From positions 1-25,739 of IMG/VR virus record IMGVR_UViG_3300042402_000638: a stretch of DNA of 25,739 bases. One strand, 5' to 3'. Below the pieces are notes generated by a model that was not told the DNA's origin, did not search any database, and was given only the letters and a program-made list of their open reading frames with translations. Made by a program: the position numbers and the translations under genes. The DNA comes from a virus (taxonomy: Duplodnaviria > Caudoviricetes). Position 1 is the first letter of the stretch. Every line of letters starts with the position of its first letter. Below are positions 15,597 through 24,614 of the stretch, one piece after another.

Positions 15597-16163
15597 TAGT
15601 CCTGTCCCGTTTTCATTCTGTTACAACCTGTTAGTAACAGGTAGTAGATACAGTCTGTAACGCAAGTTCCTGAAGAACTTGCTACTATAAAAAATAAATA
15701 GTCTCTATATAGTATTAACCTGTCCAAATGGCCAAAACGGACGTTTTTGGCCCAACTATTTTTTAAAGCCTGCCCAAAAGTAGTACAAAATAGGACATAC
15801 TGGGACAGTGGTAGGGGATATACTTTGTACGGGAAAATCTTTTCTGTAGATACATATACTGCTTCTACTCTCCATTAAACATCCTGGGGTCAATACGAGT
15901 TGACCCTAGTCTGCTACTGCTACCTATCATACTGAATAGAAACGTGCTGATAGGAGGACAGTCTTCGGCGCTTGCCCATACTTACTGGCGCCTCAGATAA
16001 GTTTAGTTTCTATCCTGACATGGCAATCAAGTCCATGGAAAGACTGGACTTGACAGCCATGTAATGTGGGATTTGTTTTTAGTAAATTACTAAGAACCGC
16101 ATGGGATTTTCCCCTGCGCTGATTGCTAGGGGAAAAGTCCCCTAGTGTAAAGGAGATAGCACC
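15597..16163. promoter_or_regulatory. Divergent control region between late (minus) and early (plus) arms; possible genome-end/packaging region
   Basis: Coding strand switches here. Palindrome ACCTGTTA-G-TAACAGGT (15626-15642), inverted repeats at 15662-15682 and 15730-15752, AT-rich tract 15685-15718, TATACT hexamers at 15819 and 15855. Confidence 0.65.
15884..16146 (+). ncRNA. Candidate structured RNA / leader made of five consecutive stem-loops
   Basis: Back-to-back inverted repeats at 15884-15909, 15936-16013, 16018-16062, 16064-16102 and 16103-16141. Confidence 0.45.
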
Positions 16164-16960: not shown

Positions 16961-17020
16961 ATTTAATGGGACCGCAAAGTAGGTTCATTGGATAACTACG
17001 AGTCGAACAGGAGATAGCAG

Positions 17021-18037: not shown

Positions 18038-18166
18038 GTTTCTACCTATGCACTCCAGCGCTCAAGGTAGGAAATCACAAGGCTAAAACTAATCAACAGC
18101 CTTCCTTGTGGGTGGTCCCGCCACCGTGAACACGGGACACTAACAACCAACAACTAAAGGAGATAT

Positions 18167-18595: not shown

Positions 18596-18651
18596 ACAAA
18601 TCGGGCGCCCGCCAAAAGGGGCGCAGCGCCCTCAAAACCAAAGGAGATAAA

Positions 18652-19203
18652 GTGGTAGAAAGCAACACAATGGATACACTTCGCAGTGAAGTAAAGTCCG
18701 AGTTGATTAATCAAGCAGGCAGATATAATCCAGATGACCGTGATGTAAATGTCCGCATCGTGGAGGATATCCGTGTAGCAATTGATGAGTTGGCAGATGG
18801 AGTTATACCATCAGCCCAACACATAGCAGAGGTAGCCATTGCTACTAATGAGAACCTACAAATCCGTGACTTCCTAATGGGTGTCCAATTAGAAACTGAA
18901 ATGGATTTTGTTGGTGAGTACATCTCATTACTTGGTAATGTAATTGAAAAAGAAAAAGCAATTCCATTAGCCACAATATTTTGTGGATACTTATATCAAG
19001 TAGAACAAAAAGAATATGCAACACAATTCCTTGATGAGGTACTACAAATTAAACCAGATTATCCATTGGCTACATTATTAAAGCGAGTCTTTGCTGCAGA
19101 GTGGCCACCATCTGAGTTAAGAAAGATGGCAGAAACATTACATCCAAAAGTAATAGATACTATCTATGAAATTGAAGAAGGAGATACAACAGATGACAAG
19201 TGA
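18652..19203 (+). CDS. DUF4192-like helical protein
   Basis: 183 aa; NLQIRDFLMG and ...LDEVLQIKPDYPLATLL resemble the DUF4192 C-terminal pattern (recognised from memory). Confidence 0.55.
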   Translation: MVESNTMDTLRSEVKSELINQAGRYNPDDRDVNVRIVEDIRVAIDELADGVIPSAQHIAEVAIATNENLQIRDFLMGVQLETEMDFVGEYISLLGNVIEKEKAIPLATIFCGYLYQVEQKEYATQFLDEVLQIKPDYPLATLLKRVFAAEWPPSELRKMAETLHPKVIDTIYEIEEGDTTDDK

Positions 19204-20337: not shown

Positions 20338-20603
20338 TGGGTAGAAATTTTGCTACAGAACTAGCCAGTTCTGATACAGATTTAGAGTGGCAAATAAAAC
20401 TACACTTACAACACAACCATTATCCAATGGTTCCAGTATCTATGGTAGAACCTTGCATATCCGCTATTGCAGCGTGTAATGAAGAGTGCTACAATAGAAT
20501 GATAGAACTTCCAGAAGGTGTTCTCTGGCGTGGCCAGAGTTCAGCGCCTGCCCACGCCATCGTGGAAGGACACCACCTTGAACCGTGGTTACTACAAGAA
20601 TAG
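20337..20603 (+). CDS. Hypothetical phage protein
   Basis: 88 aa, coupled to the upstream ORF (TAATG). Confidence 0.75.
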   Translation: MGRNFATELASSDTDLEWQIKLHLQHNHYPMVPVSMVEPCISAIAACNEECYNRMIELPEGVLWRGQSSAPAHAIVEGHHLEPWLLQE

Positions 20604-20611
20604 GAGATAGA

Positions 20612-21064
20612 ATGACAATGTATTACAGTGAGGTAGATGGTGCCGAACCAACAGTATCTATCCAGGTAAAAGATACTAAGTATACCTTTACCAATGAATC
20701 ACTTACTAGATTAATAGAAGAGAAAGATGCTTTTAAACTAGAACTAGCACAAGTAGAACGTAAGTTAAAGAGTGCTCAGTTTGATGTAAGAGAGTTCTTT
20801 CAGGCTAGATATGAAACAGACCATCACGAAATTGTGGCTGAAGTAGATGATGTTAATAGTCTACTTAAAGATATAGGTAGCGAAGAGTTAACTAAGTCTT
20901 GGTCAGCAACAGTTACTATTACAGCCACAGTTACAGGTATAGAAGCACCTAATGCTGAGGCAGCACAGGAGATTATTGAAAACAATATTGAAATTAATCT
21001 TACTGAAGATGGTGATATATGGGTAGATGATATTACAGTAGAGTCTACCTACCCTGAAGTTTAG
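20612..21064 (+). CDS. Acidic hypothetical protein with coiled coil
   Basis: Tracked ORF 20585-21064 re-started at ATG 20612 behind RBS AGGAG. Confidence 0.75.
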   Translation: MTMYYSEVDGAEPTVSIQVKDTKYTFTNESLTRLIEEKDAFKLELAQVERKLKSAQFDVREFFQARYETDHHEIVAEVDDVNSLLKDIGSEELTKSWSATVTITATVTGIEAPNAEAAQEIIENNIEINLTEDGDIWVDDITVESTYPEV

Positions 21065-21066
21065 TA

Positions 21067-21077
21067 TGTGATATACT
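21067..21077 (+). promoter_or_regulatory. Extended -10 promoter (TGTG-A-TATACT) for the replication block
   Basis: TGnTATACT match at 21069-21077 in the intergenic gap; no consensus -35. Predicted start site near 21083-21085. Confidence 0.6.
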
Positions 21078-21082
21078 AATCT

Positions 21083-21125
21083 TGGGTGCCCTGATTTCGG
21101 CTATCTCCTTTCTCAGGGCAACCCA
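21083..21125 (+). ncRNA. Hairpin with anti-Shine-Dalgarno loop (candidate sRNA or translational switch)
   Basis: Stem TGGGT-GCCCTGA / TCAGGGC-A-ACCCA with 18-nt loop TTTCGGCTATCTCCTTTC. Confidence 0.6.
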
Positions 21126-21137
21126 TAAAGGAGAGTA

Positions 21138-21917
21138 ATGGCAAAGGTAGAAATAGAAAGAGATAGATATGGTAGACCATTAATAGTTCCACCATCAGGT
21201 GGAAAAGCAGTGGCCTATACCAGAGCAACTACAATTGCTAACTCATTAGATGATGCGTCAGCACTAGTAGCCTGGAAGATGCGTATGGCAGCAATAGGTT
21301 TAACTACCAGGCCAGACATATTACTATCTATTAGTGCAGCACAAGAAGATAAGATGGCAGTTAACTCTTTGATTGAAGATGCTATGCAAGTAGCAGGTGC
21401 AAACAAAGCAGCCAACATAGGTACAGCCATACATTCATTTGCAGAACGATTAGATTTAGGACAAGACTTAGGTGTAATACCACCAGAGTATTTGCCTGAC
21501 ATCAAAGCCTATGAACAAACAACTAAGATTCTCAACAACAAGTTCATTGAACAGTTTAGTGTGCTAGATAAATACAAAATTGCTGGCACACCAGACAGAA
21601 TTGTTGAGTATAACGGTGAGTTATTTATTGCAGATATTAAGACTGGTCGAATAGACCATCCAAATAATATCTCAATTCAGTTGGCAATATACGCCAACGG
21701 CTTGCCGTATGATGCGGCTACGGCAATCCGTGGCAGTTGGGGAGAAATAAACAAAGACAAAGCAATCATTATCCATCTACCCGCAGGAACAGGAAGTTGT
21801 AAGTTAGTGTGGATAGATATTAAAGAAGGCTTTAAAGGTTTACAATTCGCAATGAAAGCAAGAAAATGGAGAGACCAAAAAGGTCTATCCTATCCGTTCG
21901 AACAGGAGAACAAATAG
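21138..21917 (+). CDS. PD-(D/E)XK exonuclease (RecB/Cas4-like, phage type)
   Basis: GTAIH, AGTPDRIV, IADIKTG and QLAIYA motifs. Confidence 0.85.
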   Translation: MAKVEIERDRYGRPLIVPPSGGKAVAYTRATTIANSLDDASALVAWKMRMAAIGLTTRPDILLSISAAQEDKMAVNSLIEDAMQVAGANKAANIGTAIHSFAERLDLGQDLGVIPPEYLPDIKAYEQTTKILNNKFIEQFSVLDKYKIAGTPDRIVEYNGELFIADIKTGRIDHPNNISIQLAIYANGLPYDAATAIRGSWGEINKDKAIIIHLPAGTGSCKLVWIDIKEGFKGLQFAMKARKWRDQKGLSYPFEQENK

Positions 21918-24334: not shown

Positions 24335-24614
24335 TGAAGAGTTTTGGGATTTTGTAGGACAAAATAAACGTATGGTTGGTATGGCAATCTCAGATGGCCA
24401 AGGACTAGACATACTTAATGCACTACGAGATATCTATTTAACTATAGATAAAGAACCAGATAGTGCAAAGCGAATGCTCACACTACTAGCCACAGTTATA
24501 TATGCCAGCAGCATAGGTGAAGGTCAACAATTTACAGATGAAATACAAGTACTATCAGCAATGGAACAATTTGATACCAGTATTAAGGAGATACTAGATG
24601 AAGAATCCAGGTGA
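24303..24614 (+). CDS. Acidic hypothetical protein
   Basis: 103 aa, overlaps both neighbours in the operon. Confidence 0.7.
   Translation: MSELENAWESDEEFWDFVGQNKRMVGMAISDGQGLDILNALRDIYLTIDKEPDSAKRMLTLLATVIYASSIGEGQQFTDEIQVLSAMEQFDTSIKEILDEESR

Follow-up and report, generated by a model that had tools for sequence, protein, structure and literature searches.

The stretch of DNA analysed here, hereafter the window, is a single phage contig of 25,739 bases that comprises two gene arms: (i) a minus arm with the terminase, portal and capsid genes, and (ii) a plus arm in which small early-type genes (transglycosylase-like, DUF4192, DUF932) are followed by the replication genes. The first gene of the replication module encodes an exonuclease of the PD-(D/E)XK/Cas4-like type (21138-21917, plus strand; PHROG 466, E 2e-61, and Pfam), after which the order is L5 gp49-like, DnaB, RusA, two primase parts and a sigma-like gene. 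The position of the plus-arm genes upstream of the exonuclease suggests that they are early. Atlas searches gave no name to the products of genes 16164 and 20612, with one DUF3127 lead for the former. The cultured phages with the best protein matches to the window are actinophages, the closest cultured exonucleases being less than 42% identical to that of the window. Pfam WhiB is encoded in two relatives and a WhiB homologue in 17 representatives of the window's clade. Phages of about 39 kb with whiB and sigma genes have been described for Nanopelagicales (PMC10202952). RNA libraries containing window-related sequence are mostly freshwater or aquatic. The host appears to be actinobacterial, plausibly a member of the Nanopelagicales; a GTDB match of a phage of the family (L400) to a Methylococcus bin was taken as a probably mis-binned phage contig and set aside as host evidence.

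The intergenic region in front of the exonuclease contains a 12-bp hairpin with one bulged A (stem 21083-21094/21113-21125, plus strand), located at the predicted +1 of the replication-operon leader. The region 21080-21128 folds with a z-score of -4.7, with none of 200 shuffles reaching equal stability, and the fold recovered the 12-bp stem and open loop of a preliminary description of this DNA, the only caveat being a 2-bp GG/CC mini-stem that the MFE structure places inside the loop, at an opening cost of ~2.2 kcal/mol. The loop spans 18 nt (21095-21112) and comprises a U-rich 5' linker and the anti-RBS segment GCUAUCUCCUUU (21100-21111). Upstream of the stem, an extended -10, TGATATACT (21069-21077), is the predicted promoter of the replication operon. 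The short palindrome TTAGTAT/ATACTAA (21061-21079) spans both the upstream stop codon and this -10 and is, judging from relatives, probably the remnant of a longer upstream hairpin seen in other clades, named HP1. HP1 lies 100-140 nt upstream of the exonuclease (L205, L253, L471, L595), carries the -10 in its 3' arm and displays a pyrimidine-rich loop, either anti-SD-like or UUCAUUU-like, of which the window's clade keeps only the 7-bp palindrome; it could be a terminator overlapping a promoter, or the site of a dimeric regulator.

The loop segment GCTATCTCCTTT (21100-21111) is the complement, over 12 nt, of positions 16149-16160, the RBS of the first plus-arm gene, 16164. Shorter matches on the plus strand define five further predicted targets, the RBSs of genes 17021 (17009-17018, 10 nt), 18167 (18156-18165, 10 nt), 18652, encoding DUF4192 (18640-18649, 10 nt), 19193, encoding DUF932 (19178-19186, 9 nt), and 20612 (20602-20610, 9 nt). 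Gene 20612 directly precedes the hairpin, and its orthologues change their tag together with the loop. The preliminary description had reported the 12/12 match and the nested ones, and on re-reading the sequence these were verified as 12, 10, 10, 10, 9 and 9 nt, all coordinates for the -10, the hairpin, the loop and the RBS matches being correct. Its association of the tag with early genes stands at these six RBSs and is incomplete in two respects. First, 9-12 contiguous Watson-Crick nucleotides with the loop are found in 6 of the 12 upstream plus-arm genes, the other six, including the transglycosylase-like gene 17618, being untagged. Second, one of the eight downstream genes, 24598, also shows a 9-nt match at its RBS (24585-24593, plus strand), which is not tracked in other clades and is probably background, and gene 24303 shows an 8-nt match. 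The minus-arm starts examined pair with the loop over at most 6 nt; TTAAGGAGA, which precedes an ATG of the leftmost minus-strand gene (position 221), reaches 7 nt at most, and AGGAGA is absent upstream of the alternative start 23699.

The motif AGGAGATA occurs 11 times in the window, for an expectation of 1.0, a count reached by none of 100 shuffles. Predicted net binding, computed with opening costs included and loop-topology penalties left out, ranges from -7.3 to -12.8 kcal/mol for the six targets, compared with -6.3 for the exonuclease's own RBS, -6.7 for 24303 and values weaker than -4.1 kcal/mol for the remainder. The loop had also been proposed to mimic the 16S rRNA tail: CUCCUUU is indeed common to the loop and the Actinomycetia anti-SD, CCUCCUUU (PMC10783764), but the 5' part of the loop matches the phage spacer and not the rRNA. 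The letter that follows GGAGA in the tagged RBSs falls outside the match to CCUCCUUU.

A total of 348 usable loci was reduced to 120 representatives at 97%, of which 79 carry the hairpin; the other 41 comprise G4/N1 (38) and N2/N3 (3). The same loop core was recognised by eye in all 79 close relatives with upstream DNA (80 close relatives in all), and TTTYGGCTATCTCCTTT is present in 36 of 36 dereplicated representatives of the window's clade. Later sets added the hairpin in 23 of 23 new metagenome representatives, all from clades already seen, and in 49 of 50 members of another set, giving 151 of 193 dereplicated relatives examined. Neither Endor1 nor Dulem virus 32 has such a hairpin before the exonuclease, and blastn of the element against GenBank phages gave no match.

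In G4/N1 the hairpin is absent and a pseudoknot-like element stands in its place. N2/N3 (L400, L451, L469) were at first counted as hairpin-less, an assignment that was rejected, as a different hairpin with an anti-SD loop follows right after the upstream stop; the only clean hairpin-negative clade is G4/N1. The alternative hairpin of L400, L451 and L469 displays a U-flanked anti-SD loop, that of L400, ACCUCCUUU, being an exact mimic of the 16S tail. The pseudoknot-like element of G4 lies directly before the exonuclease in 34 of 34 representatives (e.g., L471). The same element occurs in the window at 18110-18140 (plus strand), before gene 18167, where it comprises a GGUGG/CCACC stem and a GUCCCG loop facing a downstream CGGGAC; it has no Rfam match. 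L374, L333, L362 and L388 carry an insertion ~40 nt before the exonuclease start; it separates the pseudoknot-like element from the exonuclease RBS and has a conserved CCUGAG...UAAACUGCUCA hairpin at its end. A further hairpin with a partly open loop containing ACUCCA follows the transglycosylase-like gene of the window (18038-18073, plus strand). The anti-AUG-like loop UUCAUUUC of G4 was considered as an equivalent element and rejected, being part of HP1 and failing to track start regions, of which it reaches at least nine Watson-Crick pairs in 2% (n=221).

The stem covaries across relatives, a check that the preliminary description had proposed. Two-sided changes affect 5 of the 11 pairs within the window's clade and 9 of 11 in the other clades (38 hand-picked sequences), both scores exceeding all 500 shuffles and every slid control. 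The promoter-like -10 is likewise conserved: of 128 representatives with the hairpin, 124 have TGnTAnnnT 15-60 nt before the loop core, compared with 30 of 500 control windows, and in those 124 the extended -10 is 25-33 nt from the loop core. Because this spacing is fixed, the stem is placed at the predicted +1 of a new transcript. This placement bears on an alternative in which the hairpin is the 3' end of a read-through early mRNA that folds back on the RBSs of the same molecule, the promoter serving the downstream operon only. The layout of the window accommodates such a fold, given that the hairpin begins 18 nt past the last early stop codon with no terminator found between them, that contigs from RNA libraries span the junction (X2, 21007-21735), although a contig is not proof of one transcript, and that the 3'-UTR/5'-UTR pairing of icaR offers a precedent (PMC3868564). 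Metatranscriptome contigs (Logan) cover the hairpin region as well, but carry no information on strand, start or level. Beyond the fixed -10, other clades interpose the separate hairpin HP1 between the early stop codon and the anti-RBS hairpin, and the targets can be as far as 5 kb from the hairpin, with intervening gaps that contain hairpins of their own; overall, we regard the read-through fold as unlikely.

Loops and tags were compared between lineages. Genes were called by a simple SD-based script blind to the loop, and the letter after GGAGA was scored in distinct upstream RBSs; letter-level and contiguous-pair tests were chosen since the GC content of the loop confounds mean duplex energy across loops. 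Where the loop carries A (G1, the window's clade), T follows GGAGA in 108 of 115 upstream RBSs; where it carries G (seven groups), the letter is C in 115/138 (G2), 17/27 (G3), 6/8, 5/7, 4/7, 5/7 and 3/5; where it carries U, the letter is A in 4/4; and the hairpin-less clade G4 shows the default A in 42/60, all of these being counts which, together with their Fisher values, overstate independence, because RBSs inside one clade are related. Downstream genes lack such a bias (T in 16/36 in G1, C in 11/35 in G2). The shift is concerted among non-homologous genes, T being modal in 8 of 10 orthogroups of G1 and C in 11 of 13 of G2. The gene adjoining the hairpin illustrates the pattern, with ATAG or ATAA in 31 members of G1, ACTA in 20 of G2, ACGA in 6 of 7 of G3, and AATC or AATG in 27 members of G4. 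The loop thus tracks the early RBS motif, although some small lineages track poorly.

Sequences added later largely agree with the pattern. In hold-out metagenome representatives, from clades already seen, 13/15 and 53/61 RBSs bear the letter that the loop predicts. The last clade to be added is distant, its exonuclease being 63% identical; its loop predicts G, and G is found in 63/114 upstream and 8/50 downstream RBSs. L622, nested within this clade, combines an A-loop with T in 4/6. Of the hairpin genomes, 44 have 4.5 kb or more of upstream sequence, and each of these contains 2-7 upstream RBSs with at least nine Watson-Crick pairs to its own loop, whereas downstream RBSs with at least nine pairs number none in 38 of them and one in 6. 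The deviations from the expected letter are asymmetric: T, compatible with a G.U pair, occurs in 24/199 RBSs of the G-loop groups, and C, which would give an A.C mismatch, in 1/115 of the A-loop group, an asymmetry that can stem in part from C-to-T mutation bias. Tracking is incomplete in places: L488 follows at the first letter only (C in 3/5, second letter 0/6), the second letter is untracked in G2c, G3b and G3c, and within the distant clade, A and not G is the commonest letter of the AGGAGAGAACC subgroup (9 A, 4 T, 3 G, 1 C). The G3c case is inseparable from tag loss, because AT-rich spacers such as these have A by default. Trees built from 52 of the 120 rows and from 33 chosen rows require just seven changes across all loop states, and the hairpin and the early region may travel as one block. 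A scan with the loop 14-mer was dropped as evidence, since it mostly picked up ordinary opposite-strand RBSs in unrelated phages.

These comparisons address the simplest account of the element, an ordinary 5' stabilising or terminating hairpin whose matches arise from strong SDs and clade-specific sequence bias. Hairpins at 5' ends are common and the loop core does resemble a generic anti-SD; nevertheless, the upstream RBSs of clades without this hairpin reach at least nine Watson-Crick pairs with the window's loop in only 4.1% of cases (n=241), the downstream genes of the same genomes are unbiased, and four different letters are matched in different lineages, by which this account is largely excluded and becomes extremely improbable.

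The RBS closest to the hairpin behaves differently from the predicted targets. The exonuclease's own Shine-Dalgarno (21127-21134, plus strand) matches the loop over 8 nt and lacks the tag, T following GGAGA in none of 26 distinct G1 sequences. This RBS follows the loop letter in G2 (19/19) and G3 (6/6) and never in G1 or in the main distant group (0/27). Its pairing extends over 7-8 nt in 108 of 128 representatives, 9 nt in 4 and 4-6 nt in 16. The exonuclease RBS thus stays within eight pairs of its own loop in 124/128, while the loops of other clades often reach nine with it, which suggests selection against self-binding.

A possible cis switch would have the loop and the adjacent SD form an H-type pseudoknot that holds the replication operon off until early mRNAs, with their longer match, displace it, activation being the main output. 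The geometry is feasible in the window's clade if the lower 4 bp of the hairpin melt, giving an 8-bp stem 1, a 9-nt loop 1, an 8-bp stem 2 and a 6-nt loop 3; the own RBS pairs over 7-8 nt in most representatives, and the 12-bp trans helix (-17.4) is stronger than the 8-bp cis helix (-9.0). The lower stem nevertheless covaries (A-U/G-C in four sequences) and therefore forms; stems in G2, G3 and the distant clade are long (at least 11 bp) and for the most part uninterrupted, with short linkers; any AAGGAGA SD gives 7-8 nt of pairing by default, and the 16 representatives at 4-6 nt fall below even that. A pseudoknot acting in cis only also leaves the invariant 5' half of the loop, and the tag, unaccounted for. 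The cis switch is accordingly quite improbable, and the cis-only pseudoknot offered as an alternative in the preliminary description is disfavoured relative to pairing with early RBSs, because the stem covaries, loop and tag co-vary, the -10 is fixed and the adjacent RBS lacks the extended match. A cis pseudoknot could still be coupled to pairing in trans.

Taken together, the comparative support for RNA-RNA pairing with a tagged class of early RBSs is strong, at the level of sequence, and the hairpin loop is probably part of a leader RNA that pairs with these RBSs and likely represses them. Transcription would start at ~21083 when the replication promoter fires, so that the hairpin would form the 5' end of the replication-operon transcript, and the acting form would be either the long mRNA itself, through its leader, or a stable hairpin that outlasts its decay. 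The loop would then base-pair over the SD and spacer of the tagged mRNAs, about half of the early genes, and the duplex would occlude the SD and block 30S loading on all tagged genes together, as with RsaE, at the transition from early to middle expression. Specificity would reside in the one to four spacer letters 3' of GGAGA; because the 16S rRNA does not read these letters, a phage can tag genes without altering SD strength. The exonuclease RBS, having no tag, would escape strong binding. The proposal that early genes are silenced as a group thus gains comparative support as regards pairing, from the conserved stem, loop/tag relation and -10, and is narrowed by the tag being present in only about half of them. 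Further points count against the reading, namely the one tagged downstream gene and the U-tract 3' of the stem, which is missing in the window's clade and present in most of G2. A closed 18-nt loop also restricts an intermolecular helix to about one turn.

Co-variation reveals complementarity and not the sign of the effect, and it fits pairing in cis and in trans equally. Pairing might therefore be real with an outcome other than shut-off, such as stabilisation of the tagged mRNAs, enhanced translation, or a surplus of early mRNA that titrates the leader; the tagged genes include the conserved DUF932 and DUF4192, which may be needed all through infection. The duplex would, however, cover the SD core itself, and known loop-displayed anti-SD pairings inhibit initiation (PMC2790875), so that such outcomes are considered very unlikely.

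By analogy, the element would work like an RsaE-type anti-SD RNA and belongs to no catalogued family that was found: Rfam gave no match at E<=1 in the window, including to c4 (RF01695), RsaE and RNAIII, and among nine related loci only a tRNA reached the gathering score, with no family for these elements. RsaE and RNAIII of S. aureus provide the precedent for loop-displayed anti-SD motifs, RsaE blocking the initiation complex in toeprinting experiments (PMC2790875). As in those RNAs, the phage loop, UCUCCUUU, exposes an unpaired, conserved, pyrimidine-rich motif complementary to several SDs, with six matches of 9-12 nt. It differs in (i) the motif, UCUCC instead of the UCCC of RsaE/RNAIII-type RNAs, (ii) its context, the predicted 5' leader of a phage-encoded replication operon and not a stand-alone sRNA with a terminator, and (iii) its predicted targets, the phage's own genes bearing a co-evolving spacer tag, with no sequence homology in Rfam. 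The icaR 3'-UTR/5'-UTR interaction (PMC3868564) likewise opposes an untranslated segment to an RBS region at long range, but involves one gene and one site, with no multi-gene tag and no promoter of its own.

The c4 RNA is a phage RNA with loop-displayed segments against repeated sites in its own genome. The element described here is a single hairpin directed to the SD and spacer of many early genes, and not to elements of an immunity operon; no immunity region was found in the window. The c4 antisense RNA of phages P1 and P7 is listed as Rfam RF01695 in PMC2864571. The literature search, with most subscription journals outside its scope, returned no paper on the element or on a phage RNA aimed at a tagged class of its own RBSs, and the main text of a survey of 10,000 candidate phage RNAs does not mention Shine-Dalgarno, although its supplementary tables may list the hairpin (PMC10690425).

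Among cultured phages, the closest parallel to the tag is the start-associated sequence (SAS), a motif found at gene starts in cluster K mycobacteriophages and cluster EF Microbacterium phages, with ESAS inverted repeats upstream of about half of the sites (PMC3203893, PMC7302621, PMC11373665, PMC12699233). Pope et al. recorded a single reverse copy, without explanation, in four K1 phages and did not settle on an RNA or a protein as partner of the SAS (PMC3203893), and the role of the SAS was still presented as ill-defined or needing verification in papers of 2024 and 2025. The window tag is SAS-like in its location at the RBS, its conservation past the 16S pairing, its single orientation and its restriction to non-structural genes (6/12 upstream, none of the minus-arm structural genes). 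It matches neither the 13-bp SAS consensus GGGATAGGAGCCC nor the EF consensus, the tag of the window being AAAGGAGATAGC and all AGGAGA contexts differing; furthermore, the tag spans 8-12 nt, is lineage-specific and tracks the loop, whereas the cluster K SAS is near-invariant.

In Adephagia, a phage cultured on M. smegmatis, a long hairpin at ~58,682 holds the reverse SAS copy in its loop. This hairpin occupies the gap between genes 92 and 93, the place at which late transcription "appears to initiate" according to PMC11373665. The surrounding region (58,559-58,819; L401:30560-30800) is a conserved, multi-hairpin, non-coding stretch behind a TTGAC../TAGACT promoter-like element, apparently a late leader, and has no Rfam match. 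It matches 194 phage records; Adephagia was aligned with 15 of the more divergent phages chosen from 40 of these. Of the 16, 5 have a loop complementary to the SAS, 6 have an imperfect pyrimidine run there, and in the other 5 the loop is unrelated or missing. SAS copies are kept in all 10 genomes searched; the whole genomes of TM4 and Pixie have no reverse copy of the 10-nt SAS core, and bases 6708-56707 of AnnaSerena have none with up to two mismatches. The SAS is retained even where no complementary loop exists, so the loop alone cannot account for its upkeep. A cultured phage thus shares the anatomy of hairpin loop and tag but not the co-variation. The view that the SAS is in general a product of the loop mechanism was rejected as unsupported, there being no loop/tag co-variation in cluster K. 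Gene 39 of Adephagia (L401:3345-3743), which bears an SAS, encodes gp39, for which an Hfq-like structural match is given in Table 1 of PMC11373665; gp39 is a possible RNA chaperone for SAS pairing in cluster K.

The persistence of the cluster K SAS also lends itself to the idea that the tag is a site in double-stranded DNA, an operator or an SAS-like protein site, of which an inverted, promoter-proximal copy merely lies in the hairpin loop. The motif is a dispersed repeat in both orientations, and relatives encode WhiB and a sigma-like protein. Against a DNA site, the forward copies occupy the SD position and the only reverse copy sits within a hairpin loop, the stem of which has undergone compensatory and G.U-type changes, exceptions to the tag are G.U-compatible more often than not, and a protein would need a one-letter change of specificity at every switch; the idea is judged highly improbable.

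Temporal control in phages is usually credited to promoters, sigma factors, antiterminators, repressor proteins or nucleases. Here, in a widespread family of freshwater phages, one 43-nt RNA element would address a class of genes via a tag hidden in their RBS spacers. A private address tag in the SD-to-start spacer, read by one loop RNA at the start of the next temporal transcript, would amount to a protein-free translational switch and would also explain reverse SAS copies such as that of Adephagia, a wider reading that we advance tentatively, its probability falling a little short of even. If true, it would provide the first candidate partner for the SAS motif in a cultured phage, and it gives a testable form to a role called unresolved in papers of 2011, 2024 and 2025. 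The natural loop/tag pairs, one or two letters apart, would be a ready set of orthogonal translational regulators.
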